Source: Escherichia phage fp01
Sequence record: NC_048731.1
Strand: one strand, 5' to 3'
DNA length: 64,000 nt
This document shows positions 890-55,826 of the stretch, piece by piece. A program made the position numbers and the translations under genes. Position 1 is the stretch's first letter. Each line of letters begins with the position of its first letter. Under the pieces are notes generated by a model that had not been told where the DNA came from, did no database searches, and saw only the letters and a list, made by a program, of their open reading frames with translations.

Positions 890-3457
890 TTGAAAATCGC
901 AGTAGTTGATAAAGCTCTAAATAACACTCGTTACGATAAACATTTCCAGCTATACGGCGAGGAAGTTGATGTATTCCATATGTGTAACGAGAAGTTATCT
1001 GGTCGTTTGCTTAAAAAGCACATTACTATTGGAACACCAGAAAACCCATTTGATCCGAATGATTATGATTTTGTTATACTAGTAGGTGCTGAACCTTTCC
1101 TGTATTTCGCAGGTAAGAAAGGCATTGGTGACTATACTGGTAAACGTGTAGAGTATAATGGATATGCTAACTGGATTGCGAGTATCAGCCCAGCCCAGTT
1201 ACACTTTAAGCCTGAAATGAAACCAGTTTTCGATGCAACAGTAGAAAATATCCACGATATTATCAATGGTCGTGAGAAGATTGCAAAAGCTGGTGATTAC
1301 CGTCCTATTACTGACCCTGATGAGGCGGAAGAATATATCAAGATGGTGTATAATATGGTTATCGGACCTGTCGCATTCGACTCCGAAACCTCAGCACTAT
1401 ACTGTCGAGATGGTTATCTGCTAGGTGTTTCTATATCTCACCAAGAGTATCAGGGTGTATATATCGATTCTGATTGTCTCACAGAGGTTGCAGTATATTA
1501 TCTCCAGAAAATTCTGGATAGTGAAAACCACACTATTGTTTTTCACAACTTGAAGTTTGATATGCACTTTTATAAGTACCATCTGGGACTTACTTTTGAT
1601 AAAGCACATAAAGAACGCAGGCTCCATGATACTATGTTGCAGCATTATGTTCTAGATGAGCGTCGTGGTACTCATGGCTTGAAATCTCTAGCAATGAAGT
1701 ATACCGATATGGGTGACTATGACTTTGAACTAGATAAGTTCAAGGAGGATTACTGCAAAGCACATAAAATCAAGAAAGAAGATTTCACCTATGATTTAAT
1801 TCCGTTTGATATTATGTGGCCTTACGCTGCGAAAGATACTGATGCCACCCTACGTTTGCACAACTTCTTCTTACCAAAAATTGAGAAGAATGAAAAACTT
1901 TGCAGCCTGTATTATGATGTCCTAATGCCTGGTTGTGTATTTCTCCAGCGTGTTGAGGATCGTGGTGTACCTATTTCTATTGATCGTTTAAAAGAAGCAC
2001 AGTACCAGTTAACCCATAATCTGAATAAAGCTCGTGAGAAGCTGTATACTTATCCAGAAGTAGTTCAGCTAGAGAAAGATCAGAATGAAGCGTTTAACCC
2101 AAACTCTGTTAAACAACTCCGTGTTCTTCTGTTTGACTATGTTGGCTTAACTCCAACAGGTAAATTGACGGATACTGGAGCAGACTCTACAGATGCAGAA
2201 GCTCTGAACGAATTGTCTACGCAGCATCCAATTGCTAAGACTCTACTAGAGATTCGTAAGCTGACTAAGCTGATCTCTACTTACGTTGAGAAAATTCTTC
2301 TGAGTATTGATGCAGATGGTTGCATTCGTACTGGCTTCCACGAACACATGACTACTTCTGGTCGCCTGAGTTCTTCTGGTAAACTGAACCTGCAACAGTT
2401 ACCTCGTGATGAATCTATTATCAAGGGCTGTGTAGTAGCTCCTCCCGGGTATCGTGTAATCGCATGGGACTTAACAACTGCGGAAGTTTATTATGCTGCT
2501 GTTCTATCTGGCGATAGAAATATGCAACAAGTATTTATCAACATGAGAAATGAACCAGATAAATACCCGGACTTCCACTCTAACATCGCACACATGGTAT
2601 TTAAGCTCCAATGCGAACCTCGTGATGTTAAAAAGTTATTCCCAGCTCTGCGTCAAGCAGCTAAAGCAATCACCTTTGGTATTCTATATGGTTCTGGCCC
2701 AGCTAAAGTAGCTCATTCTGTTAACGAAGCTCTTCTGGAGCAGGCTGCTAAGACAGGCGAACCGTTTGTAGAATGTACGGTTGCAGATGCTAAAGAGTAT
2801 ATCGAAACTTACTTCGGTCAGTTCCCGCAGCTTAAGCGTTGGATTGATAAGTGCCACGATCAGATCAAGAATCATGGATTTATCTATAGTCACTTTGGTC
2901 GTAAGCGTCGTCTGCACAATATCCACTCCGAAGACCGTGGTGTTCAGGGTGAGGAAATCCGTTCTGGATTTAACGCAATCATTCAGTCTGCTTCTTCTGA
3001 TAGTCTCCTTTTAGGTGCTGTAGATGCAGATAATGAGATCATTTCTCTTGGCCTAGAACAAGAGATGAAGATTGTTATGCTGGTTCATGACTCCGTAGTT
3101 GCTATTGTTCGTGAGGATTTGATCGACCAATACAATGAAATCCTGATTCGTAATATTCAGAAAGACCGTGGTATCAGTATTCCTGGCTGTCCGATTGGTA
3201 TTGATTCAGATTCTGAAGCTGGAGGTTCTCGTGACTACTCTTGTGGTAAGATGAAGAAGCAGCATCCATCAATCGCTTGTATTGATGATGATGAATATAC
3301 CCGCTATGTCAAAAGTGTGTTACTTGATGCAGATTTCGAGTATAAGAAACTAGCTGCAATGGATAAAGAGCATCCAGATCACAGCAAATACAAGGATGAT
3401 AAGTTTATTGCTGTATGTAAAGATTTGGATAACGTGAGAAGGATTCTCGGTGCTTGA
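890..3457 (+). CDS. DNA polymerase, family A with 3'-5' exonuclease domain (T5 DNA polymerase-like, 855 aa)
   Basis: Exo motif 'VAFDSETS'; Pol I motif B 'RQAAKAITFGILYGSG'; motif C 'LVHDSVV'. Apparent TTG start preceded by 'AGGAG'. Size matches T5 DNA polymerase as I recall it. Confidence 0.85.
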   Translation: MKIAVVDKALNNTRYDKHFQLYGEEVDVFHMCNEKLSGRLLKKHITIGTPENPFDPNDYDFVILVGAEPFLYFAGKKGIGDYTGKRVEYNGYANWIASISPAQLHFKPEMKPVFDATVENIHDIINGREKIAKAGDYRPITDPDEAEEYIKMVYNMVIGPVAFDSETSALYCRDGYLLGVSISHQEYQGVYIDSDCLTEVAVYYLQKILDSENHTIVFHNLKFDMHFYKYHLGLTFDKAHKERRLHDTMLQHYVLDERRGTHGLKSLAMKYTDMGDYDFELDKFKEDYCKAHKIKKEDFTYDLIPFDIMWPYAAKDTDATLRLHNFFLPKIEKNEKLCSLYYDVLMPGCVFLQRVEDRGVPISIDRLKEAQYQLTHNLNKAREKLYTYPEVVQLEKDQNEAFNPNSVKQLRVLLFDYVGLTPTGKLTDTGADSTDAEALNELSTQHPIAKTLLEIRKLTKLISTYVEKILLSIDADGCIRTGFHEHMTTSGRLSSSGKLNLQQLPRDESIIKGCVVAPPGYRVIAWDLTTAEVYYAAVLSGDRNMQQVFINMRNEPDKYPDFHSNIAHMVFKLQCEPRDVKKLFPALRQAAKAITFGILYGSGPAKVAHSVNEALLEQAAKTGEPFVECTVADAKEYIETYFGQFPQLKRWIDKCHDQIKNHGFIYSHFGRKRRLHNIHSEDRGVQGEEIRSGFNAIIQSASSDSLLLGAVDADNEIISLGLEQEMKIVMLVHDSVVAIVREDLIDQYNEILIRNIQKDRGISIPGCPIGIDSDSEAGGSRDYSCGKMKKQHPSIACIDDDEYTRYVKSVLLDADFEYKKLAAMDKEHPDHSKYKDDKFIAVCKDLDNVRRILGA

Positions 3458-3947
3458 TTTCAAATTGCCCGTATATGCTTTACGGGCGTTTGTATCAATT
3501 GAGCAAGAGGGTGATTATTCCGTAATTACAACAAGGTATAATAAATATGTGCTAGATAACAGGAAGTTGCCTGGCACGTTTTCTCAACGTAGGCTTATTC
3601 TATTTGAGAAACGGAAAGAATTACCCTACAAGCTCTACCCTATTAGAGGTAGAATATCAATGTTGTCTCAATTAGTTGGGTCAAAGCGTAGCCAATTTAT
3701 AGATTCTGATGGAAATCTTATTAACTGGAAGAAAACTACATTCTATGATGTTGTCACCTCTAAAGTTTTGCATTCAGCTAGAATTTATAATGGAAAATAC
3801 CAATGCTATGTAGCTAAAGTTCCATACCCATTTGTATTATCCTATGTTCCAGCTTATATAAGCTATATTCTGGTAAATAATAGCCCTGTTATTTACCAAG
3901 TCCATCAAGAGGAGCCTGAAATTCCTAGACTTAGAATAAAATTATGA
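3450..3947 (+). CDS. hypothetical protein (start uncertain; possible internal ATG near 3660)
   Basis: Open frame between polymerase and helicase genes; no recognisable motif. Confidence 0.3.
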   Translation: MLDFKLPVYALRAFVSIEQEGDYSVITTRYNKYVLDNRKLPGTFSQRRLILFEKRKELPYKLYPIRGRISMLSQLVGSKRSQFIDSDGNLINWKKTTFYDVVTSKVLHSARIYNGKYQCYVAKVPYPFVLSYVPAYISYILVNNSPVIYQVHQEEPEIPRLRIKL

Positions 3948-5296
3948 AAGTTGTTATATCTAATAAAGCCTATTTCAAGCCCGATGATGAACTTTGGGAT
4001 TATTGTAGTAAGCAAACCACTTATCACATAGAGACAATGACTAGTAAATACCCTATTATGTATAAGAATAGTGGTGTTGTTGCCAAAGAGATTAAGTGGA
4101 TTCCTATCACTCGTCTAGATTTATTAGATGCTAAAGGAGTAAAATACGAATTAGTCGATAAACGCACATTAGCTCCGGCAGATATACCAAAACCTAAGTT
4201 CAAGCTGCGTGAAGAAGATCAGCTTCCAATATACGAAGAATGCGATGATACCTGTATTATTAATGGTAAGCCTGGATTTGGTAAAACTATCCTAGCCCTT
4301 GCACTTGCGTATAAATTTGGCCAAAAAACTCTGGTAATATGTACGAATACATCCATTCGTGAGATGTGGGCAGCAGAAGTTCGTAAATGGTTTGGGTTTG
4401 AACCGGGTATCATAGGTTCTGGGAAATACAATATTGATCCACCAATTGTAGTCAGTAATATTCAAACAGTGAATAAACATGCGAATAATCTTTCTAAAGT
4501 ATTCGGTACTGTTATAGTTGATGAAGTTCACCATTGTGTGGCTACAACTTTCACTAACTTCCTAGAAATATCATGTGCTCGCTATAAGATTGGACTATCC
4601 GGTACATTAAAAAGAAAAGATGGTCTACAAGTTATGTTCAAAGATTTCTTTGGATATAAGATTTTTAGCCCACCGGTTAATAATACTGTTGCACCTACAA
4701 TCCATAGGTACTCTGTACCTGTTGAGTTATCAGGAAATCAGAATGTGCCATGGGCATTACGTGCTAATGATGTGTACAATCATCCTGAGTATCGAGAAAC
4801 TATTATAAACCTAGCACATTTATATGTGAATATGGGGCATAAAGTACTCATTGTAAGCGATAGAACAGAGTTAATCCAAACAGTACTAGAAGCTCTTGCA
4901 CAGCGTGGTGTTACAACTTATGAAATTATAGGGGCAACCCACTTAGATGACCGATTAAAAATCCAGGAAGATATAGCAAAAGGTGGACCTTGTGTACTTG
5001 CAGCAGCTCAGAGTATCTTCTCTGAAGGTATTTCCCTTAATGAGCTATCTTGTTTAATAATGGGAAGTCTTATTAATAATGAATCTCTCATTGAACAGCT
5101 TGCAGGACGTGTTCAACGTATTGTCGATGGTAAACTCGACCCTATTGTTGTAGATCTAATCATGAAAGGTGGTACTGGGCTAAGACAGGCTTCTGGACGT
5201 ATGGCAGTATATCGTAACAACGGGTGGAAAACTATTACCACGACTCCGGAGAAAGCAGTTCAATTAGCTAAAATTGCATTTGGCAACAGCTCATAA
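3944..5296 (+). CDS. SF2 DNA helicase (T5 D10-like)
   Basis: Walker A 'NGKPGFGKT', Walker B/DEAH-like 'VDEVHH', later 'SGT' and Q/R-rich helicase motifs; ATG at 3944 overlaps the upstream stop. Confidence 0.7.
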   Translation: MKVVISNKAYFKPDDELWDYCSKQTTYHIETMTSKYPIMYKNSGVVAKEIKWIPITRLDLLDAKGVKYELVDKRTLAPADIPKPKFKLREEDQLPIYEECDDTCIINGKPGFGKTILALALAYKFGQKTLVICTNTSIREMWAAEVRKWFGFEPGIIGSGKYNIDPPIVVSNIQTVNKHANNLSKVFGTVIVDEVHHCVATTFTNFLEISCARYKIGLSGTLKRKDGLQVMFKDFFGYKIFSPPVNNTVAPTIHRYSVPVELSGNQNVPWALRANDVYNHPEYRETIINLAHLYVNMGHKVLIVSDRTELIQTVLEALAQRGVTTYEIIGATHLDDRLKIQEDIAKGGPCVLAAAQSIFSEGISLNELSCLIMGSLINNESLIEQLAGRVQRIVDGKLDPIVVDLIMKGGTGLRQASGRMAVYRNNGWKTITTTPEKAVQLAKIAFGNSS

Positions 5297-5308
5297 ATGA
5301 TGTATAAT
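5280..5308 (+). promoter_or_regulatory. sigma70 promoter (T5 early type)
   Basis: 'TTGGCA' + 17 nt + 'TATAAT', followed by 'ATATACATAAATTTGAGAGAG', which resembles the downstream region of the classical T5 PN25 promoter as I recall it. Confidence 0.45.
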
Positions 5309-5379
5309 ATATACATAAATTTGAGAGAGAAAGTTTCGGATTGATAAGAAAGTCCGAAGCAGAAAAATAAAAATTTTAG

Positions 5380-5409
5380 TTGCTAAATTCTCTCGAAATC
5401 TAGTATAAT
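5380..5409 (+). promoter_or_regulatory. sigma70 promoter (T5 early type), tandem copy
   Basis: 'TTGCTA' + 18 nt + 'TATAAT' followed by 'ATATACATAAATTCGAGGAG'; near-duplicate of the promoter at 5280-5308. Confidence 0.45.
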
Positions 5410-5793
5410 ATATACATAAATTCGAGGAGAAAACAAAAATTAAATTCTTCGATTATGAAAAGCTATACTTACTAGCTAGAGGAAATTCCGACCTAATTAT
5501 TAAGCTATTCAAAAGAATGCTTACAGAGCCTGATGCTCACCAACTATTGGTCGGTTCCTCATTCATTTTGAATGAATCAACTATTGTTGATAATCCAAAT
5601 AAATTGTCTAATAGACAACTGGCAGAATATCTAGGAATTTTAAGTCTACGAAATTATGCCGAATACAAGTTTACAAACGATCCTAGTTTGGACATGCAAT
5701 ATGTTCCAGTATGGATACCACGTTTAGTAATCGACACTAACCCACTAATCGCAATTAACAAATCGAAATTAATCTTTAAAGAGGAAATAAAAT

Positions 5794-6567
5794 ATGGCTA
5801 AGTCTTGGGGCGAAACTACTGGCGGTTCTAACGATAAAATCGAATTCCTGAAGTTCAACAACGGTATCACTCGTGTTCGTATCGTTTCTGGTGTTCTTCC
5901 ACGTTATGTCTATTGGCTGACTAATAAAGAGGGTAACGTAGCTCCTTTTGAATGTCTCCGTTTTAACCGTGACAAAGAGAGCTTTGTTCGTGGTAAAGCT
6001 GATCCAGTTCATGAGATGGGCTTCTTCGAGAAAGAGCTGGATAAAGATGGTAATCGTGTTCCGCTGAAACCGAAGAAAAACTATATCGCTTTTGTTATTG
6101 ACCGTTCTGATAACAAACTGAAAGTAATGGAAGTCAAGGCTACTATTCTGAAAGGCATCCAGTCTATCATGAAGCAGCTGAGCCTGGCAACTCCGTTTGA
6201 TATTGATATTTCTATCGAGAAAAAAGGTAAAGGTTTCGATACTGAGTATGATGTACAGCAGATTGCTGCTATGCAGTTCCAGATTAAGCTGCAAGATCCT
6301 AACAGTGCGGAATCTAAGCAATATGCTGCGGATGTCGATCTGATCGGTGAAGCTATGTGTGATGAAGATGGCGACATCATTAAGTTCGAAAAAGTTCCTT
6401 CTCTGGAACAAACCTATCCGGTTCCTACCTATGAAGAGCAGAAAGAAGCAATTCAAGCCTTCATGGAGGGTCGTGAGAATAAAGATGATGATGCCAAATC
6501 TGGTAATAGCAATGCAGGCTCCCAGAAAGGTATTGACTCAGAAGCTGCAAGCGATCTGGACGACTAA
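5794..6567 (+). CDS. abundant early protein with acidic C-terminal tail, possibly ssDNA-binding protein
   Basis: Strong RBS 'AAAGAGGAAATAAAATATG'; codon usage visibly biased toward major E. coli codons; C-terminus 'DSEAASDLDD' is SSB-like; followed by a strong terminator. Function is inference. Confidence 0.55.
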   Translation: MAKSWGETTGGSNDKIEFLKFNNGITRVRIVSGVLPRYVYWLTNKEGNVAPFECLRFNRDKESFVRGKADPVHEMGFFEKELDKDGNRVPLKPKKNYIAFVIDRSDNKLKVMEVKATILKGIQSIMKQLSLATPFDIDISIEKKGKGFDTEYDVQQIAAMQFQIKLQDPNSAESKQYAADVDLIGEAMCDEDGDIIKFEKVPSLEQTYPVPTYEEQKEAIQAFMEGRENKDDDAKSGNSNAGSQKGIDSEAASDLDD

Positions 6568-6574
6568 TAAATAG

Positions 6575-6598
6575 AGGGGCTTCGGCCCCTTTCTTTTT
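6575..6598 (+). terminator. rho-independent terminator
   Basis: Hairpin 'AGGGGC-TTCG-GCCCCT' (UUCG tetraloop) followed by 'TTCTTTTT'. Confidence 0.7.
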
Positions 6599-6603
6599 AA
6601 CCA

Positions 6604-7581
6604 ATGAGAATATTATTTAGTGCTGATCATCATATCAAACTAGGACAAGATAAAGTTCCAAAGGAATGGCAGAAGCGTCGCTTCCTGATGCTAGGAGAAC
6701 GGTTAAATGATATATTCCATAATCATAACTGTGATCTTCATATTGCTGGTGGTGATATACTTGATGTTGCCGACCCGTCGTCAGAAGAAATAGAACTGCT
6801 TGAACAGTTCATGTCAAGACTTGACCATCCAGGCAAAATCTTTACTGGAAATCATGAAATGTTAACTAAAACCATTTCATGTCTATATCATTATGCAGGA
6901 GTTATTAATAAAGTAACGAGCGGGAAGTGGGAAGTAATTACCAAACCATATCGTTCCCCTGAATTTGATATTGTTCCATATGACGAAATCCATAAATCTA
7001 AGTGGAAACCATCTGAATCAAAACTATGTTTCACGCATGTTCGTGGTGAAATCCCTCCACATGTAAAACCAGAAATTGATCTAACTAAGTATAACTGTTA
7101 TGATACTGTAATTGCTGGCGATTTACATTCTTATACTAATAGCCAGACTATCGGATCTACTAGACTTCTCTACCCAGGGTCTCCATTAACTACATCGTTC
7201 CATAGAGAACGCACAAAAGGTACAAATGGTTGTTTTATCGTTGATACCGACACATTAAAAGTAGAATGGATTGAACTCGGTGATTTACCACAACTGATTC
7301 GTAAAACAATCGGAGCCGGTGAAGAGATGGAACCTAGTGATTATGATCGTGTAGTATATGAAGTTACTGGTGACGTTGTTCAATTAAAGTCAATCAAAGA
7401 CTCTGATTTATTAGATAAGAAGATTAACCATCGAGTTACTAAAGACGCTAAGTTAAATCTTGTCGATCTTGATATGTTAGGTGAACTTGAACTTTACTTC
7501 CGTGAAGTCGAGAAGCTATCTCAAGGCGACATTGATAGAATCTTGGCTAGAGCTGCGAAATATGTCAAAGATTACAATTAA
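6604..7581 (+). CDS. Mre11/SbcD-like metallophosphatase nuclease (T5 D13-like)
   Basis: Calcineurin-like phosphoesterase motifs 'ADHH', 'GGDILD', 'TGNHE'. Confidence 0.75.
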   Translation: MRILFSADHHIKLGQDKVPKEWQKRRFLMLGERLNDIFHNHNCDLHIAGGDILDVADPSSEEIELLEQFMSRLDHPGKIFTGNHEMLTKTISCLYHYAGVINKVTSGKWEVITKPYRSPEFDIVPYDEIHKSKWKPSESKLCFTHVRGEIPPHVKPEIDLTKYNCYDTVIAGDLHSYTNSQTIGSTRLLYPGSPLTTSFHRERTKGTNGCFIVDTDTLKVEWIELGDLPQLIRKTIGAGEEMEPSDYDRVVYEVTGDVVQLKSIKDSDLLDKKINHRVTKDAKLNLVDLDMLGELELYFREVEKLSQGDIDRILARAAKYVKDYN

Positions 7582-9400
7582 GACACTAAAATTTAGTAAC
7601 GTTATGTCTTACGGTAAGGACATCGTAATTCATTTCGATAAGAATCCAGTTACTCAACTAATTGGTGGCAATGGGCTAGGGAAATCCACTATTGCTACTG
7701 TTATTGAAGAATTGTTTTATAACAAGAACTCACGGGGTATTAAGAAGGACGCCCTGTTCTCTTGGTCTACTCCGAAAAAAGAGTATGATATGCACGCTTA
7801 CTTCTCGAAAGATGAAGATGAGTATGAATTGCATAAAGTAGTTAAATCAACTGCTAAAGTAACTCTTATTAAGAATGGAGAAGATATTAGTGGCCACACG
7901 GCAACTCAAACATACAAGATGATTGAAGAGATTATGGGTGGTGACTTCCAAACATTCACCAAACTAATTTATCAATCAGTGGGTTCCAATCTAGACTTTC
8001 TAAAAGCAACAGATGCAACACGTAAGGCTTTTCTTGTCAACTTGTTCAATCAAGAACAGTATAAAGAAATGTCAGAAACTATTAAGGCTGACCGTAAAGA
8101 AATAGCAAATACCTTAAATAATTTGCAGGGCCAAATGGCTGTAATTACGAAGATCCTTAATGGAAAGAATAATCTGGGAACTTTGCAGGAACCTGTAGAA
8201 GTACCGGAGTTTGATGAAGAGCCATTAGCACAAGAACTTACTGAATCGAAAATTAAGGCGGCATTAGCCAAGTCTCAAGAGGCTAATATTACTAAATTGC
8301 GTAATTTGGACAAAGCTGTACAAGTTGCCGAACAATCTTTCGAACCTTTCAAAAATTTGCCCGCGCCTACTGACCAAAACGAAGAGATCTCAAGTGTTAC
8401 GCGTGACCTAACGATTGTGACCTCACGTGCGGGAGAAGTTAAGAAACGTTATCAGAAGTTCAAGCAAGAGGCTTCAAATACTGAATGTCCTACTTGTGGT
8501 ACTCATCTGGATACAACTGCTGCTCAAAAAGCAATGGATATGGCTAGAATAGAATATGACCCTCTGTTCAAAGAGAAGCAATCTCTTGAAGCTAAGCTAG
8601 AACAGTTGAAGAAAGAACAACTTGAGTACGTTGCGTATACTAGAGCAAAGGATGCTTTGGATAAAGCAGTGGCAGCTAGAGACGAGTTCAAAAATTCAAT
8701 GAGTGACGCCTCTTTTGAAGAACTCAATGTGCAAAACCTACAGGTGCAAATCCGACAACTAGAACAGGAAATAGCTGATGGCCGTTCTAAGGTTGCAATT
8801 GCCAAAGAGCATAATGCAAATGTCGAATTAGCCAATGCAAAATATAAAGCGAAACTAGAACAGATTGAGAAAGCTGAGGCAGAAATGTCTGAGATTACTT
8901 CCAAACTGGATGAAGTATCAGAAGCTGTTTCTGATCTAGATATTCTGATTGCTGCATTGAAAAATCTGGTAGGGTATAAACTAGAACATAGCGTGAAAGT
9001 ATTTGAAGAGCTTATCAATAAATACCTTTCCATTATGACTGGCGGTAAGTTCGCACTTGGATTTGAACTTGATGAAACAAAATTACAAGTAGTAATCTTC
9101 AATGATGGAAACCGTACTAGTATGGAGAATTGCTCTACTGGTCAGCAAAGTCGAATCAACCTAGCAACTCTGTTAGCTATTCGAATGCTACTAACATCTA
9201 TTAGTAAAGTTAATATTAATCTTCTATTCCTTGATGAAGTAATTAGCTTTATTGATACGAAAGGACTTGACACCCTTGTTGAATTATTAAATGAGGAAGA
9301 AAGTCTAAATTCTATCATTGTTTCTCATGGGCATACGCATCCATTGGCCCATAAGATTACTGTCAAAAAAGATGCAGAAGGATTTTCCTACTTAGAATAA
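7562..9400 (+). CDS. Rad50/SbcC-like ATPase (T5 D12-like)
   Basis: Walker A 'GGNGLGKST', long coiled coil with zinc-hook-like 'CPTCG', ABC signature 'STGQQSRINLA', Walker B 'LLFLDEV'. Likely start is ATG at 7562 (MSKITIK), not 7481. Confidence 0.75.
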   Translation: MSKITIKTLKFSNVMSYGKDIVIHFDKNPVTQLIGGNGLGKSTIATVIEELFYNKNSRGIKKDALFSWSTPKKEYDMHAYFSKDEDEYELHKVVKSTAKVTLIKNGEDISGHTATQTYKMIEEIMGGDFQTFTKLIYQSVGSNLDFLKATDATRKAFLVNLFNQEQYKEMSETIKADRKEIANTLNNLQGQMAVITKILNGKNNLGTLQEPVEVPEFDEEPLAQELTESKIKAALAKSQEANITKLRNLDKAVQVAEQSFEPFKNLPAPTDQNEEISSVTRDLTIVTSRAGEVKKRYQKFKQEASNTECPTCGTHLDTTAAQKAMDMARIEYDPLFKEKQSLEAKLEQLKKEQLEYVAYTRAKDALDKAVAARDEFKNSMSDASFEELNVQNLQVQIRQLEQEIADGRSKVAIAKEHNANVELANAKYKAKLEQIEKAEAEMSEITSKLDEVSEAVSDLDILIAALKNLVGYKLEHSVKVFEELINKYLSIMTGGKFALGFELDETKLQVVIFNDGNRTSMENCSTGQQSRINLATLLAIRMLLTSISKVNINLLFLDEVISFIDTKGLDTLVELLNEEESLNSIIVSHGHTHPLAHKITVKKDAEGFSYLE

Positions 9401-39486: not shown

Positions 39487-40221
39487 TTACGCAACTTTTA
39501 ATTTCTCAATATATTGTTGCGGGCTGCAACTATATTCTGCGCGTTCTTCCTCGGTCATACTTTCCCAACATAATTTCAAACGATCGGCTAGGAACTGATA
39601 ATCATTATCATCCTCGAGGGATTCATCAATAAAGGTTCCGCCTATCAATGCCACGCCGATTGATAGAATATCATTAACGGCTTGCGCATCTAGCGTTTTA
39701 AATCCATATGACGCAGCCGCTGATAATACACCTTTATGATCATCAATCATTGTAAAATCAGCGTTCGGATATAGCTGTTTAAATAATTCAAAGTAATAAC
39801 TTTTGTATACTGCGTCCTTGCTGTGGTATATCTCGCTAACCTTATCAGCCTCAAAATATTTATGCAGTGTATCGCGGGAAAATACACGGATATTACTATC
39901 ACCACGCCCGCGCAATCCTTGTTTGCGCAAATAATAATAATCCGACTTGCTCATCAGCCGAGCGGTGCAAATAATGTTTAAAGTATTTGAGTCATTCATA
40001 CATTGGCGCATATATTCCACCAAAGGTAATAAGGTGTCTTGCATTATTAAATCATGTTTACACGCTTCATTTTTATACTTATTTAAATTTAAATTCCCGT
40101 CGCTATCAAAGCAAGGCGCTACACGATGGAAAGAATTAATGATAGTGCCGTCCAGATCCCAAATCATGACGCGGGAAATATGCGGGAAATTACGGGAAAT
40201 ATTCATAATAGCTTTATTCAT
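39487..40221 (-). CDS. dmp: HAD-superfamily 5'-deoxyribonucleotidase (T5 Dmp-like)
   Basis: HAD motif I 'IWDLDGTI'; 244 aa; sits downstream of the A1-like gene in the GC-richer island. Confidence 0.6.
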   Translation of the reverse strand: MNKAIMNISRNFPHISRVMIWDLDGTIINSFHRVAPCFDSDGNLNLNKYKNEACKHDLIMQDTLLPLVEYMRQCMNDSNTLNIICTARLMSKSDYYYLRKQGLRGRGDSNIRVFSRDTLHKYFEADKVSEIYHSKDAVYKSYYFELFKQLYPNADFTMIDDHKGVLSAAASYGFKTLDAQAVNDILSIGVALIGGTFIDESLEDDNDYQFLADRLKLCWESMTEEERAEYSCSPQQYIEKLKVA

Positions 40222-40759: not shown

Positions 40760-42424
40760 TTATGCGAAAAATTTGCCGTTTTTAAAGTCAATCAAAGTGC
40801 GTTGCCCGTTGGCGTATGTAATTAAATGCGTTTGCGTCCAGCTTGACGCGCCAACGTTGTAACCCATATCCAGACTACCAGCTACGCCAGCGGTATAAAC
40901 GCCGCCATAAATGCTAGCGGTGTGAGTGTGTCCGGTGTTTAACTTGCCCAATTTCTTAAACTGCTTAGGATTGCCACGGCTGCCGTTTATGCCGTTATGA
41001 CCGTGTACACCACACTCAATGCCTGCAATTTTGAATGATTGATCAGTCGTTAGGAAAATCGCGTTAAACTCGCAACCTGCGACGCTACGCAGCGCATAAT
41101 CTAGCACGTTGAAAGTATCGTCATGATTACCGATTGCCGCGTAAATTGCAGCATTAAGGCGGTGATATAGTTCCGCATTGGCTGGGTCGTCTTTAATGTT
41201 AGCATTACGATCATCAAGCCAACGAGATAGCGCCAAATCGTGATTCGATTCAACAATGATCGTTTGACTAAAATCACGCTCCATCGATTCCAGCACGCGC
41301 CCGGTATCGATAAGATCATCAATAACCTTATCCCGTCCGGCTGCATACTGTTTCGCTAGAAATACACCGGAAGCGCGGTTATGATGATTGCGCGATGTAA
41401 AATCATGCACGTCATGGATAAACTGATATTTAGGCTTGAGAATATCAAGCAAACTATTGTCGCCAGCCCATGACGCTGCGGCGCACTCCTCATCTAATTT
41501 TTCGGCGTGAATGTCACCATACTGTAAGCCTAAAACATGCCCCGATGTTTCATAGCATCCGGCGGGAGTAGCGCAAACATTCAGATCATAAAACACCCCG
41601 CTTTCATCCATTGTTTCAAGCTGGCGAACAAAAAATTCACCGTCCTCATCGAACTCGACAATCAGCGCACCAAAGTTATGAAGTGCTTCCGCTTTCTGTC
41701 CTGCTTTCTGCTGAATGTAGTTTTTGAGTGTTGCCGTTCCGGTTGAATACATGCGGCGCACCACTTCACCTTTTAAAGCTGGGACGCTTTCGGCGGTGAT
41801 TTTAGCGTGACCAATTGCCAGACCCTCGATATTTAAAGCCGTTGCAGTTTCTGCAAATCCAGAAAGCGGATAATCTGCGGTTGGCAAAACATTAATTTCA
41901 GCCATGAAAGCAAAACGGCGGTTATTTAAAAACACGTTTTTGCTGCAAATATACTTATCAAAAGCGGAATCATATTTGATTCCGTCAGCACCTTCCCCAT
42001 TTTGGAATCCGTTTTTATTATAAATATACTTAGAAACAAGCAAATCAGCGCCGATAAATTTGGCATATTGTTCAAGCGAGGACAAAAAGTTTTTATGCGG
42101 GAAAGTATTATTCTGAATCGATGTAATAATAAAGCGTTTGCCTTGTTTTACTTCCCACTGTTCCACGGTACTAGAAACAATTCCAGCCGCTTCGGGGCGC
42201 TCATCGTTTTTAATGGCTTTTACCGCTTTCGCCGCTTTCGGTTTAGCTGGTTTATTTGCTTCCAGCCAGTCGCAGATAGCGGTTGAATGTTTTGCAGTAT
42301 CGTAAACCGCTTTTGATATATCGTCGCAGACCTCCAATTTAGTAGCGCGCAGACGTTTACCATAGAAATTAAAGTCAGCGGCTAGTTTCAGGATAGCGGT
42401 TTGTTTTTCTGCGGAAAAAATCAT
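40760..42424 (-). CDS. A1: pre-early A1-like protein with metallophosphatase (Mre11-like) motifs
   Basis: ~554 aa from 'MIFSAEK'; 'GDIHAE', 'ESNHD', 'GHNGINGSRG', 'TGHTHTA' phosphoesterase motifs; size and position match T5 A1 as recalled. Confidence 0.65.
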   Translation of the reverse strand: MIFSAEKQTAILKLAADFNFYGKRLRATKLEVCDDISKAVYDTAKHSTAICDWLEANKPAKPKAAKAVKAIKNDERPEAAGIVSSTVEQWEVKQGKRFIITSIQNNTFPHKNFLSSLEQYAKFIGADLLVSKYIYNKNGFQNGEGADGIKYDSAFDKYICSKNVFLNNRRFAFMAEINVLPTADYPLSGFAETATALNIEGLAIGHAKITAESVPALKGEVVRRMYSTGTATLKNYIQQKAGQKAEALHNFGALIVEFDEDGEFFVRQLETMDESGVFYDLNVCATPAGCYETSGHVLGLQYGDIHAEKLDEECAAASWAGDNSLLDILKPKYQFIHDVHDFTSRNHHNRASGVFLAKQYAAGRDKVIDDLIDTGRVLESMERDFSQTIIVESNHDLALSRWLDDRNANIKDDPANAELYHRLNAAIYAAIGNHDDTFNVLDYALRSVAGCEFNAIFLTTDQSFKIAGIECGVHGHNGINGSRGNPKQFKKLGKLNTGHTHTASIYGGVYTAGVAGSLDMGYNVGASSWTQTHLITYANGQRTLIDFKNGKFFA

Positions 42425-42773: not shown

Positions 42774-43181
42774 TTATTCACCTGCGGCCTGTTTTACTTC
42801 ATCGGCAACGCCTAACAACTGCGCCACGGCGTCCAGCGTTTCCAGTTTCGCGCTTTCAAGGCTTGCCAGATCATCGGCGTCTTTGATAATGCCGGAATCA
42901 ATAGCGTGTTTTGCAATTACTCGCACATAATGAGCCTTGCGGATTGAACTGCCGCCGCCAACTTTGCGCGGCTTATCGCTTTTTTGATAGGCTTTCGCGC
43001 TGGTCAATTTTGAGCGAACGGATACGGGAGAAGTCGCGCCCACTGCCTTTGCAATCTCTTTCAGGCCGTCGCTATTTGCAAATTCTAAACCGTTTTCGTT
43101 GATTAACTGCTGATACAGGGTAACAGCTTTTTGGGTGTTGTCTTCATTCCAAGTGAATTTTGCGGTTTTTGCGTTAGTCAT
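42774..43181 (-). CDS. hypothetical pre-early protein (A2-sized, possibly DNA-binding)
   Basis: 135 aa, Lys/Ala-rich; upstream of the A1-like gene in the same operon; leader 'TTAAATTAATTGGAGTTT'. Identity with T5 A2 is a guess from order and size. Confidence 0.3.
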   Translation of the reverse strand: MTNAKTAKFTWNEDNTQKAVTLYQQLINENGLEFANSDGLKEIAKAVGATSPVSVRSKLTSAKAYQKSDKPRKVGGGSSIRKAHYVRVIAKHAIDSGIIKDADDLASLESAKLETLDAVAQLLGVADEVKQAAGE

Positions 43182-43279
43182 GGTAAAAACTCCAATTAAT
43201 TTAATTTAAGGGATTAGATTAACTAATGTTAATCGTTATAACCCTCCTTATTCTAGGAGGGTATAAAGTTAACACTAAT

Positions 43280-43531
43280 TTATAATACAGCTTCCCATTT
43301 TTCGTTGCGTTGAACAACCTTTACAACATCGCCTGATTTAACGCGAACGTTATAAACGGTTTTGCCGTTGTTACTGCGTTCTGTTTCAGCGTATACCGCG
43401 TCGATTGTATCGAACGGCATAAGCGCCGCGCCTTTAATACGTTCGGCCTTTCCGGTTAATTCATCCGTTTTAGTAACGAAAGGAATAAAAACGGATTGAC
43501 CAATTTTAGGCGTGGTAATAACGTTTTGCAT
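43280..43531 (-). CDS. hypothetical protein (83 aa)
   Basis: ORF with 'GGAG' RBS. Confidence 0.45.
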   Translation of the reverse strand: MQNVITTPKIGQSVFIPFVTKTDELTGKAERIKGAALMPFDTIDAVYAETERSNNGKTVYNVRVKSGDVVKVVQRNEKWEAVL

Positions 43532-43762
43532 AATATAGACTCCAGTTTATTCAGTGGATTGTTCCGCATTACCTGCTAGAAAATAACAGGTAATAAGAAA
43601 AAATCCGCTCGCCATTATAAAATCAAATTAAAGAACTCCACGCGGGCCGCTATATCCCAGTTAGGGGGCGAGACACATTATGGTAAGTGCCGACCGTCAA
43701 ATTGTATCAAGTTATCGCTCTTTTCGAACTGGGTATATCTTAAAAGCCCATCGGCTAGGTTG

Positions 43763-43963
43763 TCAAACTATTTTTTGCAGTTTTTTATGATTTTCCTTCA
43801 GGTCAATCATAATATTACGCCAGATCATTTCTAAACCTTGCTGGCGCCCTTTCTTGTACTGCGTGAAGCGGTATTTTACCGATCTTTGCGCTACTGTCAA
43901 TAATTTTTTAGTTTCGCTATCCAGTGCCTTGCTAGGTTTACCAGTGATCAATAGAGTTTGCAT
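43763..43963 (-). CDS. hypothetical basic protein (66 aa)
   Basis: ORF; coupled to an upstream 52-aa ORF by TAATG overlap. Confidence 0.35.
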   Translation of the reverse strand: MQTLLITGKPSKALDSETKKLLTVAQRSVKYRFTQYKKGRQQGLEMIWRNIMIDLKENHKKLQKIV

Positions 43964-44121
43964 TATTTGAGATCCTCCAAAGCGTATAAACCTTTGCCAT
44001 CATTGCAGATTATTACTGCTTCTGAATAGGTGGCATGATATTCGTTTGCCGCTTTTACCCATTGCTCGATCTTTTCGATCGTGTCGTGGGTAGCTGGATG
44101 ATCGTTATATATTGTTTGCAT
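43963..44121 (-). CDS. hypothetical protein (52 aa)
   Basis: ORF 'MQTIYNDHPATHDTIEKIEQWVKAANEYH...' translationally coupled to the next gene. Confidence 0.25.
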   Translation of the reverse strand: MQTIYNDHPATHDTIEKIEQWVKAANEYHATYSEAVIICNDGKGLYALEDLK

Positions 44122-44583
44122 ATCGTCGATTCCTTATAATGAATAAGTTTACCGCCGATAGGCTTTTAAGATATACCCAATTTTTAAAGAGCGCGGCGGT
44201 AAACTCCCCGCCGTGTAGTTCGTCATTGCCGCCCTACGAGATAAATAATAACAAACAACGAAAAAGGCGCAACCTTATATTTGTAAAGAAATGTAAAGAC
44301 AAAATCCACCGGACACCGTGCGGCGATCTGGGCGCGACGGCCTAAAATTAAAAGAAACGGGCGCGCGAATACCACAAAACACAGCAGATAAGCAAGTAAT
44401 TTTTTCATTTATATTTGCTTTGCCCTACTTGACAAAATCTAAAAAGCTCGTGGCGACGATAAACGACGTGGCCCCTTATGATTGGATGGCTAAAAACTTT
44501 ACTGCGTTCTGGGGCGTTTCAGGCCGCTTATTTTCGACTTAACAAATCATTAACAAACGCAAAATTGAAAAATAGTTGGAAAA

Positions 44584-44609
44584 GGTCTTGACTTTTAAAA
44601 ATCAAGACC
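44584..44609 (-). terminator. hairpin downstream of HNH gene
   Basis: 'GGTCTTGA-(10 nt)-TCAAGACC'. Confidence 0.4.
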
Positions 44610-44633
44610 AAATGACTTAATTTATTAAATTAA

Positions 44634-45152
44634 TTAATTGACAATTCCAAATTCAGCTTTTTTAGTTTCAAGCCATAATAATAACTCTTGTAAATCATAA
44701 CCTGACTTACTAACACGCTTGTTAGTAATAGGATTCTTAATTTGAGCAGTCAAATAGTCACGCCCGTAACTATCACGGGGGCGAACTTTATTAACGTAAA
44801 TGTTTTTAGGGATACCATTAGCACGCTTACAGTTTTCATACTCACTAGGAGTACGATTATAATTATTCTGCGAACTATCAACCGCGCGAAGATTCCAGAT
44901 GTTATTATTACGAGTGTTACGATCGATATGATCAATCATTAGCTCGCTATCTATACCGCCATTCATTATACAAAAGATAATTCTATGTACTTTTAACTGT
45001 CCCATGCCTAATAGTTCAACTTGCCAATAATTACCATTTAAACCACCTGCGACGGCGTGATCTTCCCGCCAACGTAAAAATGATAACGCTGTTTCATCAT
45101 AATAAAAGTAACTATTAAAAAGATCATAATCTATATCTTTATATTTACCCAT
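44634..45152 (-). CDS. HNH homing endonuclease
   Basis: 'IDHIDRNTRNNNIWNLRAV' HNH motif; gene is markedly AT-richer than its GC-richer surroundings. Confidence 0.65.
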   Translation of the reverse strand: MGKYKDIDYDLFNSYFYYDETALSFLRWREDHAVAGGLNGNYWQVELLGMGQLKVHRIIFCIMNGGIDSELMIDHIDRNTRNNNIWNLRAVDSSQNNYNRTPSEYENCKRANGIPKNIYVNKVRPRDSYGRDYLTAQIKNPITNKRVSKSGYDLQELLLWLETKKAEFGIVN

Positions 45153-45717
45153 TGTTATAGTTTCCTTATGTTATTAATTTAATCTCTATTATATTATATC
45201 AAAACAATTAGCAGACTAGCTAATGAGTTTTTCAGGTTTAATTAGCAGACTCATAATCACTCTAAAAACCTATTAGCCAACTAACTATATTTTATTATAT
45301 AATAACTGTATAAATTAGTTAGTGAGAACCACTATCATTTAAGTTACCCACAGCCTTATACATTTTGTAAAATAATTTGACACAATAGGCGGCGATATGA
45401 GGGCTTTTACACAGACTTATCCACAGGTTATTCCACTGTATAAATATACAGGGTAAAAAGGTAGTGTTAACAACTGCAATCAATTTTAAGCGGCCTAAAA
45501 CGCTTTCTAACGAGCTAAACGCTGCGGGGTAGTATTAAAGTAAAGCCTTCACCCGTCGGCCTGGTGGCTTCGCCGTGTCTTGCTCTTTACTACACCGCTG
45601 CGCGGTTAGCATAAAACTAGGTGTTAGGCAAGGAAAATAAAAAAGTAAAATAATCTTTGCCTATGCTAGAAAATTACCCTTATCATTCACTCACCGATTA
45701 ACGAGGGAGGCCAACAA

Positions 45718-46704
45718 ATGCGGCTATATAAACCAGATAACGCAACCGTCTTAAAAGGTGCGCTGCGTAACCTGCTGGACGGTAGCAGAACAACCAGCAT
45801 TAAACATTTTGTTTTCAATATTGAAACTATTCATCAAAACTTTTTTGATGATTATGATGCTTACAATATGAATAGTTTTCTACCGTTATATAAGCAAGGG
45901 GCAACGCTTGTTTTATATAATCAGGATTATCAATTACTTACTAGTAGGGGGCCGGATACTGATTTCATAGTCGTAAAAGGCAACACAGTAAAAGCCTATG
46001 ATACTGGGGCGGGCTTAGAAGTTTTTTCAATAGAAAACTATGAAGCCAATGATAATGATCTTTATGACGTAGAAAATTTTCTTGATTCATTTTGGCGTTA
46101 TTTATCAGTTGGCTGGAATCGGTCGGATTCTGATGGGTATCGTTTTGCGGCTATAATGGCCTTTGATGATAACGGTAATTTTTTGCTACCGTCGGAGTTA
46201 TATAATCGGGTATATGAAGGCGATATTGTTGACGCCGGATTTTCTTTCGAAAGGGAAGAAAGTATTGACAGTATAGAAAAACATGCTGTAAATTCTAACA
46301 CTAAAAGCGTTCACACTCAAACTACTGAAAACAAAGGAAAAAATGCCATGACCAAGATCGCTAACATCGTTGCCGCCAATAAGTCTGCCGTTGTAAACGC
46401 TGCAAAACTGGAAGCGGGTAAAATTGCACTGACTCAAATTACGAAAGTAGCGGCTAAAAAAGCACCGTTCATGATCAAAGGCTATATTGATACGCCGATT
46501 GGTCGTGTAGTGATCGCTAACCTGCTGAGTGTAGCGGTTGACCAGTACGCCCCGAGTAACCAGAAAGCGAAAGCGGTAGCAGGGGCGGCTATGGAAGCGG
46601 CGATGTTGGAAATGGTGCAAAGTTTTAACATCGCTGAGATGATTGATGAAATGGTAAAAGGTATCGATATTTCTACTTTCACCACTAACACCGAAAGCGA
46701 GTAA
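45718..46704 (+). CDS. hypothetical protein, acidic N-terminal half and Ala/Lys-rich C-terminal half
   Basis: 328 aa; RBS 'GAGGGAGG'; first gene of a tightly packed plus-strand operon. Confidence 0.6.
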   Translation: MRLYKPDNATVLKGALRNLLDGSRTTSIKHFVFNIETIHQNFFDDYDAYNMNSFLPLYKQGATLVLYNQDYQLLTSRGPDTDFIVVKGNTVKAYDTGAGLEVFSIENYEANDNDLYDVENFLDSFWRYLSVGWNRSDSDGYRFAAIMAFDDNGNFLLPSELYNRVYEGDIVDAGFSFEREESIDSIEKHAVNSNTKSVHTQTTENKGKNAMTKIANIVAANKSAVVNAAKLEAGKIALTQITKVAAKKAPFMIKGYIDTPIGRVVIANLLSVAVDQYAPSNQKAKAVAGAAMEAAMLEMVQSFNIAEMIDEMVKGIDISTFTTNTESE

Positions 46705-46768
46705 TAATAACTAGCGGGGTAACAATCCCCGCTTTACTATTCCCTTGTTAATTAATAGGAGGCTAATT

Positions 46769-47086
46769 ATGCAGCTTAACAAAAAAATGCTAGAACAATT
46801 GCGGGGTAGAATCCAGCGCGATGACTACCCTCACATTAATTATTCTTCGGAAGTAGTAGACACTGCCGATTCATGGAAAAAAGCAGGTTACCCCTATGTA
46901 TGGCAACATGCAGAAAGCGCAAACGGATTCCATGCCTTTCGTGATTTAGGTCATGGAAAACTTTGCGTTTTTAAAGGTGAGTTATTAATAGGAGTATCAG
47001 AATCGGAAGTAATCACGGATGAGGTTGTATTCTTAGACAATGACCAATATGAAACAGGCAATCAGTTTTATTTTCCCGCTAATTAA
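46769..47086 (+). CDS. hypothetical protein (105 aa)
   Basis: Start 'MQLNKKM' preceded by 'TTAATTAATAGGAGGCTAATT'. Confidence 0.55.
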   Translation: MQLNKKMLEQLRGRIQRDDYPHINYSSEVVDTADSWKKAGYPYVWQHAESANGFHAFRDLGHGKLCVFKGELLIGVSESEVITDEVVFLDNDQYETGNQFYFPAN

Positions 47087-47100
47087 TAGGAGGCTAATTA

Positions 47101-47595
47101 ATGGCTGAAGAAAAATATGGCTTCTCACTGGGAGAAGTGAGCACGGCAAAACATGATATGATCATTTTAGTCGATTGTCATACTGGCTATTGCGGGGAAG
47201 GGAATACCGAGGAATATTTTGTTCCTGCTGGTACGGATCTAGACGCTTTCGCTCAGGAAATGGCTATTGATAATGCTTCTCGTTTTGGTAGCGATGGCTA
47301 TGAAGACGAGGAAACTGGCGAATGGTATGAAAATGAAAACGTATATGCGAGCCTTTATCATTATCAATTAAGTAAATCCGGCACATATGTAAACGGCGGC
47401 GATCCTATTAATTCCGTCATGAAATTAATTATTAAACACGGTGGCGTCGAGATAATTGATAACAAAGCGGTAATATATGCAAACCGATTAAAACAGCTTG
47501 TTTATATCCCTGATAGTACCCGATGGGATGAATACGCCGTTTTGCATGACGAATTGAAACGATGTTTCAATGTTGAAGCCTTACAAGTAGTCTAA
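47101..47595 (+). CDS. hypothetical acidic protein (164 aa)
   Basis: Preceded by the same 'TTAATTAATAGGAGGCTAATTA' cassette; Asp/Glu/Tyr-rich. Confidence 0.6.
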   Translation: MAEEKYGFSLGEVSTAKHDMIILVDCHTGYCGEGNTEEYFVPAGTDLDAFAQEMAIDNASRFGSDGYEDEETGEWYENENVYASLYHYQLSKSGTYVNGGDPINSVMKLIIKHGGVEIIDNKAVIYANRLKQLVYIPDSTRWDEYAVLHDELKRCFNVEALQVV

Positions 47596-49158: not shown

Positions 49159-49360
49159 CCGCGCCCGCGATGGTTAGCCTGCTAATGGTTAGGGTGTTAC
49201 GTGTCGCCTTGTGTGATCGTTAGCGAGCTAACTAATTTTCAAGCCTCCTCCAATTTTGCCCTTGTTTTAGTATCCCCACCAAAATTAAACGCGTTAGAAT
49301 GCGTTTGAGGGCGTTTTAGCGGTATATTAGAATTATTCACTGCGTAGGAATACTGTATAT

Positions 49361-49460
49361 TTATCCAGTAGGATAAGCTGTGGATAAGTCTGTTGATAAC
49401 GCTTCAAAACGGCTAGGATTTTGTCAAGTCAAATCGTGCTGTTGATAAGTCTGGGGATAA
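49361..49460. promoter_or_regulatory. cluster of DnaA-box-like 9-mers
   Basis: 'TGTGGATAA' (perfect complement of TTATCCACA) plus 'TGTTGATAA' x2, 'TGGGGATAA', 'TTATCCAGT' within ~100 bp. Confidence 0.6.
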
Positions 49461-49485
49461 CTTAAATAATAGTGTTTCTCACTTC

Positions 49486-49740
49486 CGTTCTTAAATGCGA
49501 ATCATTATCATTTGCATTCCACTTCCTGAATAAGAATCATTCCACTATCTAAACGATAATCATTCCACTTCCTGAATAATAATCATTCCACTATCTAAAT
49601 AAGAATCATTCCACTATCTAAACGATAATCATTCCACTTTTTAAATGAGATTGATTCTCATTCCACTTTCTAAATGCGAATTATTATCATTCGCATTCCG
49701 CTTTTTAAATGAGAATGATTCTTATTATCATTCGTATTTA
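49486..49740. repeat. tandem iteron-like ~23-bp repeats
   Basis: About 8 head-to-tail units of 'CATTCCACT(A/T)(T/C)CT(A/G)AA(T/C)(A/G)A(T/G)AAT' with variants. Confidence 0.8.
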
Positions 49741-55015: not shown

Positions 55016-55293
55016 TTTTTAATCTCCGTAATTATCTGTGCACGCATTACTTTATTAGGTAGTTTTGTATTCCCAGCAATTGCTTCGATATTGTTTAGTT
55101 TTTCTTTTAGAATATCTGAGCGTCTCTGAGCTAGTTCAATATCTTGTTCTTGTTCTATTAAGCGGCAGTGAAGTCCACTATTAGTAGTAAGCATACTCTC
55201 TATATTTTTTCGCATGCTTACAATACCAATAATCCCCCCAATCGCTGCTAGTGTCATAAGAACTAGCAATCCAATGAGAATTTCTATAATCAT
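55012..55293 (-). CDS. membrane-anchored coiled-coil protein (93 aa)
   Basis: N-terminal TM 'IIEILIGLLVLMTLAAIGGIIGIV'. Confidence 0.4.
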   Translation of the reverse strand: MIIEILIGLLVLMTLAAIGGIIGIVSMRKNIESMLTTNSGLHCRLIEQEQDIELAQRRSDILKEKLNNIEAIAGNTKLPNKVMRAQIITEIKK

Positions 55294-55826
55294 TTATTTA
55301 ATTCCTCTAAAGTAGGTAATGGTTTTGTATGATCAAAAGTTTCTATAACAGCGGTAGGCCCATGTAGTTCTAAACGTAGTTCATTAGCTCTTTGAACTGC
55401 CAACTCTAAATCTAGGTATCTAAAGTAACCTCCGTGTACTGTAATACTTTCGGCGCTTCTGACCTGGACTCTCCATTGTTGTCGATCTTTTTTCCAGGTA
55501 ATTCCTAAGTACCCCGAATTAGATTGAGCGATTTTGCTACGATTATTCTCTTGGGACGTACAATCTTTTAAATTACACCACCTATTATCTTTTCTTATAT
55601 TATTTAAGTGGTGTACTAGATTTGGAATATACCCCTCCATGTACAAAAAGGCTAATCTATGGGCTGCGTATCTTTTTCTATTTATTCCAATAAATATATA
55701 ACCATCCTTATCAGGACTACCAGCAATACTACCTGCTTTACCTCGTCCTCTACTGACTTTCCTTATAAACTCGCCCGTTTCCGGGTGGTATTCAAATAAC
55801 TCTTTTAATCTTTCTTGTGTTAGCAT
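55290..55826 (-). CDS. HNH homing endonuclease with AP2-like DNA-binding segment
   Basis: 'VHHLNNIRKDNRWCNL' HNH motif; 'GYLGITWKKDRQQWRVQV' AP2-like. Confidence 0.6.
   Translation of the reverse strand: MLTQERLKELFEYHPETGEFIRKVSRGRGKAGSIAGSPDKDGYIFIGINRKRYAAHRLAFLYMEGYIPNLVHHLNNIRKDNRWCNLKDCTSQENNRSKIAQSNSGYLGITWKKDRQQWRVQVRSAESITVHGGYFRYLDLELAVQRANELRLELHGPTAVIETFDHTKPLPTLEELNK

Follow-up and report, generated by a model that had tools for sequence, protein, structure and literature searches.

Layout of the pre-early region

The window, that is, the whole 64,000-nucleotide stretch of DNA analysed here, comes from a T5-like phage (Demerecviridae, Markadamsvirinae). Between 38317 and 50900, late structural genes abut the terminal-repeat (pre-early) block, and early genes lie to its right; the assembly therefore seems to include the terminal repeat a single time, as a permuted or collapsed one would. 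Searches with T5 proteins (tblastn) established the gene order within the block. The leftward unit, on the minus strand, comprises dmp (39490-40221), the T5.002 homologue, A1 (40763-42424), the T5.005 homologue, A2 (42777-43181), and the T5.007 and T5.008 homologues. The rightward unit, on the plus strand, opens with the T5.011 homologue (45718-46704; Pfam DUF7566, E 1.7e-111; 77% protein identity to T5.011) and continues with homologues of T5.012-T5.017.

The first gene on the leftward side of this divergent region is an ORF at 44634-45152 on the minus strand, which has an ATG start and encodes 172 aa. It matches the Pfam family HNH_3 (PF13392; residues 54-97, E 4.8e-12) with 45.8 bits, above the curated threshold of 24.8 bits, as well as PHROG 99, "HNH endonuclease" (E 3.7e-30). 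A 61-aa minus-strand ORF (44223-44408; phrog_17446, E 1.4e-37), homologous to SPC35_0008, separates it from the T5.008 homologue. The initial annotation had placed the HNH gene between the minus-strand A2, A1, and dmp genes and the plus-strand operon, followed by 565 bp without ORFs, and both statements hold. The 565 bp between the HNH gene and the first rightward gene (45153-45717) contain no credible ORF, the sole candidate being a 54-aa minus-strand frame with a TTG start.

A 3.3-kb query around the locus matched 464 phage records, nearly all from Salmonella or Escherichia T5-like phages; the best matches were NR01, T5_ev219, and NBEco002 (90-93%). Within the 64-kb window, tblastn with the HNH protein found no paralogue. 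A second HNH_3 gene (55290-55826, minus strand, 178 aa; Pfam E 5.7e-11) is present in the early region; it was not matched in that search and is only distantly related, with 32% identity to T5 HegG over 91 residues.

The HNH ORF has a GC content of 0.343, compared with 0.442 for A1, 0.483 for A2, and 0.402 for the DUF7566 gene. The initial annotation had stressed this difference, which is real locally (0.343 versus 0.40-0.48) but is not an anomaly: 519-bp windows average 0.386 (standard deviation 0.033), the value for the whole window, which puts the ORF at the 10th percentile, and its GC3 (0.266) does not stand out in the genome. Both figures rule out AT-richness as a sign of foreign origin. 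Several late (structural) genes are equally AT-rich (GC 0.336-0.351); the unusual genes are the GC-rich outliers, pre-early A1 and A2. The most AT-rich stretch is non-coding (45153-45320; GC 0.226).

The HNH protein

The only PDB relative identified by sequence is I-HmuI: residues 53-116 of the two proteins align without gaps, so that D74, H75, and N96 fall on same-numbered I-HmuI residues. The catalytic and metal-binding roles of these three residues are presumably those of their I-HmuI counterparts (Shen et al. 2004). Six residues (H56, D74, H75, N83, N87, and N96) are invariant across 15 homologues. The general-base His and the metal-binding Asp and Asn of the beta-beta-alpha-metal motif are all present, and the beta-beta-alpha-metal fold itself is predicted in the structural model.

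That model, made with AlphaFold2 from the homologue alignment, has a mean pLDDT of 83 and a disordered linker at residues 101-112. The last 52 residues can be superposed at 2.3 A on 2gcc, an AP2/ERF domain, and the predicted C-terminal domain has a three-stranded antiparallel sheet packed on one helix. A database search retrieved only 17 relatives, all with HNH_3. One homologue, P0017, is alone in also carrying Pfam AP2 (PF00847, a precomputed annotation), aligned to the C-terminal third of the HNH protein. PF00847 gave no match to the HNH protein itself at E up to 10, so the AP2 assignment, which draws on the predicted structure and the alignment to P0017, is at the level of fold only. As modelled, the protein consists of an I-HmuI-like N-terminal HNH nuclease module and a C-terminal AP2-like DNA-binding domain. 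Phage homing endonucleases that join an HNH nuclease to an AP2 DNA-binding domain are a known type.

Among six window-type alleles, dN/dS is 0.08-0.29; the protein is thus maintained by purifying selection. Its length is kept at 172-175 aa across five allele lineages, and the gene appears real and intact. The copy in phage bux (1501-2019 of its record) differs from the MSP1 allele solely in a Q95-to-stop change just before N96. This copy is freshly inactivated, and fits the decay stage of the homing-endonuclease life cycle.

Two other identities for the gene were considered and rejected. A terminase-associated HNH protein is ruled out by location, in the pre-early terminal-repeat region between the A2 and T5.011 homologues; the enzyme that makes the natural T5 nicks is ruled out on prevalence and expected pre-early timing.

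Insertion polymorphism

The position of the HNH gene (44634-45152) is designated site A. T5 has hegG at this site, and NR01 and FFH1 have close copies of the window gene; Spc35, SSP1, Shivani, and KPP2018 have no HNH gene there, and are the four empty sites among the 13 loci that anchor mapping took in besides the window. Comparison with these T5-like genomes bears out an insertion polymorphism, with its left junction at 44642/44643. Alignment to Spc35 (by blastn and MAFFT, which were also applied to T5 and NR01) shows 94% homology up to 44642, weak similarity (77-81%) at 45241-45320, and full homology (94%) from 45321. The left junction is sharp, and it is common to ten occupied loci: the window, T5, NR01, SP01, LVR16A, SH9, ESCO30, PH204, VSe12, and Sen_I1. 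Empty sites also have the sequence that forms the 3' end of the ORF, from the last three codons through the stop codon (44634-44642).

The right boundary is less distinct and falls within 45206-45320, where a repeated AATTAGCAGACT motif makes placement ambiguous. The minimal segment missing from HNH-less relatives is 598 bp (44643-45240) and replaces 87 bp of Spc35. The maximal replaced block is 678 bp (44643-45320), versus 260 bp in Spc35, and includes R2, an 80-bp AT-rich segment (45241-45320) that travels with the cassette. At the start of R2, AATTAGCAGACT occurs for the second time, repeating 45206-45217 in direct orientation. Identity of R2 reaches 91-97% in the HNH-bearing phages T5, NR01, SP01, and PH204 but no more than about 80% in Spc35, SSP1, Shivani, and KPP2018, which lack the HNH gene; LVR16A, SH9, ESCO30, and VSe12 have no R2.

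No clean excision is seen at the empty site: where the cassette would be, there are 87-260 bp of unrelated sequence, and a single pair of genomes therefore cannot tell gain from loss with replacement. Polymorphism in the flanks of the 13 loci allowed no target or immunity site to be named. The search for a conserved target site at the flanks, which the initial annotation had proposed, thus yielded none; occupied and empty genomes conserve the left flank to an equal degree, and only R2 co-varies with the cassette. R2 may be part of the cassette itself.

Cassette DNA was matched by 71 records (46 at a coverage of at least 80%) and the flanks by 464; most of the 434 records that match an empty-site query have the site without an intervening gene. 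An HNH gene is therefore present at site A in about 10-15% of matching phage records, and most relatives have none there, which leaves the proposed insertion standing on this point. The counts are in line with a 2026 preprint that reports hegG in <15% of Demerecviridae (10.64898/2026.04.02.716235).

The spacer has two insertion points, though the literature groups Shivani with T5 and FFH1. In Shivani (2929-3270 of its record) and SSP1 (1145-1486), where site A is empty, a different HNH gene of 113 aa sits inside the segment of the phrog_17446 61-aa ORF, about 300 bp to the left of site A. At this site B, anchor matches are split (1-74 and 112/118-186) around the 113-aa gene; the window equivalent is about 44297-44340. 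Upstream of the 113-aa gene is a segment with 76-78% similarity to the window cassette's promoter region.

The region has other variable features. The segment 43960-44121, with a 52-aa ORF (43963-44121; phrog_21018), occurs in Klebsiella phage KPP2018 but lacks a counterpart in T5, Spc35, or NR01, and forms a further small variable cassette of the leftward pre-early unit. This ORF and the DUF7416 gene (the T5.008 homologue) are bracketed by a 40-nt inverted repeat (43716-43755 and 44154-44193; 88% complementary, 398 nt apart). On the rightward side, two consecutive ORFs (46745-47086 and 47101-47595) are missing from T5, and the second has annotated homologues in Shivani, LVR16A, and KPP2018. 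Each is preceded by a copy of a 32-nt direct repeat (46738-46769 and 47069-47100; 84%) containing TTAATTAATAGGAGGCTAATTA, which looks like a duplicated translation-initiation region. In a metagenomic relative (Logan ERR11042085 contig, 1158-7774), the DUF7566 gene is co-oriented with the genes for HNH, DUF7416, DUF7177, A2, and A1; its pre-early region is rearranged and not divergent.

Allele lineages

Phages of two genera, Tequintavirus and Epseptimavirus, have an HNH gene at site A, and at least five full-length lineages can be told apart there: window, NR01, FFH1, Es2, and MSP1; T5; SP01; LVR16A, VSe12, and SH9; and ESCO30 and PH204. These lineages are 55-65% identical to one another in protein. 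Sen_I1 has a shortened 115-aa form.

Relatedness of the cassettes does not follow relatedness of the flanks. The HNH genes of ESCO30 and PH204 are 100% identical in DNA between flanking genes that are 83-93% identical, and those of LVR16A and VSe12 are 98.7% identical between flanking genes at 85-93%. The window and bux, a phage of another genus, share 90% in the HNH gene and 66-84% in the flanking genes. The opposite relation holds for the window and PH204, which have HNH genes 64% identical amid flanking genes at 90-93%. On sequence grounds, this decoupling in both directions is a signature of mobility. Among first-step-transfer (FST) proteins compared with T5, HegG is by far the most diverged (57%): dmp, A1, A2, and other conserved FST proteins are 89-99% identical, with T5.002 (81%) and T5.011 (77%) intermediate.

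Divergence is also uneven within the cassette. Sliding identity between lineages is 88-100% at the ends (44623-44702 and 45143-45262) and 35-65% in the centre (44743-45062, codons ~30-136). The cassette is thus a mosaic, bearing the footprints expected of a mobile nuclease gene that spreads by recombination.

Presence or absence at a fixed junction, together with the discordance between cassette and flanks, upholds the initial annotation in calling the HNH gene a mobile insertion. The word "recent" is not supported: the nearest known alleles have 96% DNA identity and a dS of 0.13-0.17, about as diverged as the flanks, and the two genera hold alleles only 55-65% identical.

Spacer elements

The HNH gene is intergenic. 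Its 5' region (45153-45240, minus strand), 92-98% identical to T5, carries the RBS AAGGAAA and a predicted promoter. The T5 record annotates promoters upstream of hegG and in front of T5.011, and 45161-45235 corresponds to the former (T5 5938-6012). The predicted cassette promoter contains TGATATAATATAAT (extended -10-like) and CTGCTA (TTGCTA in T5). A consensus scanner that requires a 16-18 bp spacer did not call it, and its spacer is non-canonical; we infer that it functions as a promoter.

On the other side of the gene, 25 bp downstream of the HNH stop codon, is a terminator-like hairpin (44584-44609, minus strand) with an 11-bp stem followed by UUUUCC. Both an inverted-repeat search and the RNA fold centroid return this hairpin, although the terminator scanner called no intrinsic terminator at the locus, this one included. 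It is 96% identical in the HNH-less Spc35, and is therefore part of the conserved flank rather than of the insert. A 17-nt inverted repeat (44514-44530 and 45487-45503; 94% complementary) brackets the cassette from within the conserved flanks, and T5, Shivani, and Sen_I1 show the same pairing.

Directly to the right of the cassette is an intact IRC-spacer-IRD, a 131-bp repeat with paired DnaA boxes (45321-45451), which matches the element and boxes described by Davison 2020. The two boxes found by scanning, TTTTACACA (45405-45413) and TTATCCACA (45417-45425), are 3 bp apart. The inverted partner of this repeat, at about 49353-49483 in the injection-stop region, has a TTATCCACA box at 49379-49387. 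The injection-stop region also contains 23-bp tandem repeats (CATTCCACT...) at 49515-49675 and related 29-nt repeats, overall 49462-49726.

The equivalent of the rightward pre-early promoter annotated in T5 lies upstream of the T5.011 homologue (45634-45712, plus strand). Its predicted hexamers, TTGCCT-18-TATCAT at 45657-45686, were called by the scanner, and identity to T5 is 92-100%. To the left of the cassette lie P-H22 and P-D/E20, the promoters of A2 and A1 in T5. A structured RNA in the 565-bp gap is ruled out: Rfam had no match over 43000-47000 at E up to 1, and the GC-richer stretch 45470-45640 folds no better than shuffled sequence (z -0.9 and -0.2). The initial annotation had suggested that the insertion may have split or displaced a regulatory region. 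A repeat-rich non-coding spacer is indeed interrupted, but every recognised promoter and the IRC-spacer-IRD are intact.

Interpretation

The HNH insertion as such is already known. The T5 record annotates hegG (T5.010) as a 172-aa "putative H-N-H endonuclease P-TflVII". Davison 2020 recognised hegG as an insertion absent from most T5-like phages, described the near-identical FFH1 allele, and grouped Shivani and SSP1 with T5 and FFH1. In the window, the gene with its own RBS and predicted promoter very probably forms a free-standing HNH homing endonuclease cassette at a recurrent hot spot, site A, as the positional homologue of T5 hegG. Judged by sequence, it belongs to the FFH1/NR01 allele lineage. 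The sequence comparisons and the structural model directly show an intact gene under purifying selection, its catalytic motif and predicted fold, presence or absence at the fixed junction, and cassette/flank discordance.

The mechanism that we infer, from the promoter through nicking rather than double-strand cutting and the target site to homing itself, would run as follows. Host RNA polymerase would transcribe the gene leftward from the first DNA to enter the cell. The protein, acting as a monomer, would use both its N-terminal beta-sheet region and its AP2-like domain to bind a site that is long and asymmetric. Its single beta-beta-alpha-metal active site (D74, H75, and N96) would most likely nick one strand, as does I-HmuI, a homing enzyme that nicks one strand of a long degenerate site. 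In a mixed infection, the HNH-less allele of a co-infecting relative would be attacked, and repair templated by the HNH-bearing genome would transfer the cassette, together with neighbouring markers, to the recipient.

Could the gene instead be ancestral at site A and lost from most lineages, so that the polymorphism reflects deletion or replacement of a gene that is not now mobile? Long residence is implied by the occupation of two genera by such dissimilar alleles (55-65% identical), the empty sites hold 87-260 bp of other sequence with no clean joint, and decay is ongoing, as the 115-aa Sen_I1 form and the bux nonsense copy attest. Yet vertical descent with loss cannot produce cassettes decoupled from their flanks in both directions, and nucleotide-identical ends around a diverged centre indicate repeated recombination. 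The related short HNH gene with a similar promoter segment at site B of Shivani and SSP1 also counts against loss, as does the continuity, in most phages, of the repeat regions that flank the insertion (Davison 2020). Ancestry followed by loss is accordingly improbable.

Somewhat more doubtful is the proposal that the gene is a domesticated pre-early effector, of benefit to the phage rather than selfish, that acts in host-DNA damage or compaction or in counter-defence. Its position in the first-injected DNA beside host-takeover genes would suit such a role, and purifying selection is in keeping with it, though equally expected for an active homing gene. Expression of T5 hegG alone is toxic to E. 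coli and brings about nucleoid supercompaction, a DNA-damage hallmark; however, hegG is dispensable, its expression compacts the nucleoid with no bulk or visible DNA degradation, and only A1 is needed for host DNA degradation (10.64898/2026.04.02.716235). Toxicity of this kind, lacking DNA degradation, would also fit off-target or host-directed activity. Against an effector stand the gene's low frequency (<15% of the family, and about 10-15% of matching records) and its presence/absence pattern, pseudogenes, and allele swapping, all typical of selfish nuclease genes. That the ORF is a functionless product of chance or decay in an AT-rich spacer is effectively refuted. The region is AT-rich and repeat-rich, and small spurious ORFs have been annotated nearby in some relatives, but an HNH_3 match well above the cut-off, conserved catalytic residues, a confident fold prediction, dN/dS values of 0.08-0.29, and a length of 172-175 aa kept in five lineages speak otherwise.

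A bolder version of the homing cassette is conceivable, if rather unlikely: site A would be a hot spot for cassette exchange, its conserved ends serving as recombination handles, and the nuclease a pre-early superinfection weapon rather than a passive parasite. One end would consist of the promoter and first ~30 codons, near-identical in at least five HNH-AP2 lineages, and the other of the last ~36 codons with the terminator hairpin, also near-identical. These ends would let alleles replace one another, while the centre, 35-65% identical, would set specificity. Expressed from the first 8% of the injected DNA, the nuclease might then attack a co-infecting competitor with a different allele or no HNH gene, striking its first-step-transfer DNA while this is still isolated.

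Annotators should name the gene an HNH homing endonuclease at the hegG locus, of the FFH1/NR01 allele type, and mark in the spacer to its right both the IRC-spacer-IRD repeat with its DnaA boxes and the rightward pre-early promoter. Refinements of the described phenomenon are the several lineages at one junction; the second insertion point in Shivani and SSP1; the bux nonsense copy; the conserved cassette ends around a diverged core; and the predicted AP2-like C-terminal fold. Such comparative details may aid homing tests in T5-like phages or engineering of the first-step-transfer region. Beyond correct annotation, the importance is little.

Comparison with known systems

HNH enzymes of the T5 F-Tfl group have been named in the literature as homing endonucleases that cause T5-like genomes to differ. 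The closest counterparts of the window gene are T5 HegG, FFH1 ORF9, and NR01 gp100, which share its locus, orientation, length of 172 aa, cassette junctions, and promoter region. Protein identity is 97% for FFH1 ORF9 and 94% for NR01 gp100, and only 57-61% for T5 HegG. Compared with the latter, the window type lacks 6 residues after RWREDHA and has 5 inserted ones (SEYEN), and the central 320 bp of the two cassettes are 35-65% identical between flanks at 85-98%. The low central identity and these indels mark the window gene as a different allele lineage at the same site.

Other close systems are also known. I-HmuI (PDB 1u3e), from Bacillus phage SPO1, is an intron-encoded HNH homing endonuclease that nicks its target. 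The HNH-AP2 homing endonucleases of phages and cyanobacteria combine HNH_3 with PF00847; the window protein has no Pfam AP2 match. Like the seg and mob genes of T-even phages and the nuclease genes at exchange boundaries (Barth, Dunham and Seed 2023), the window HNH gene is intergenic with its own predicted promoter, sporadic in distribution, and surrounded by clustered recombination breakpoints. Unlike them, it belongs to another phage family and another nuclease lineage, and it lies in the pre-early DNA that is injected first.
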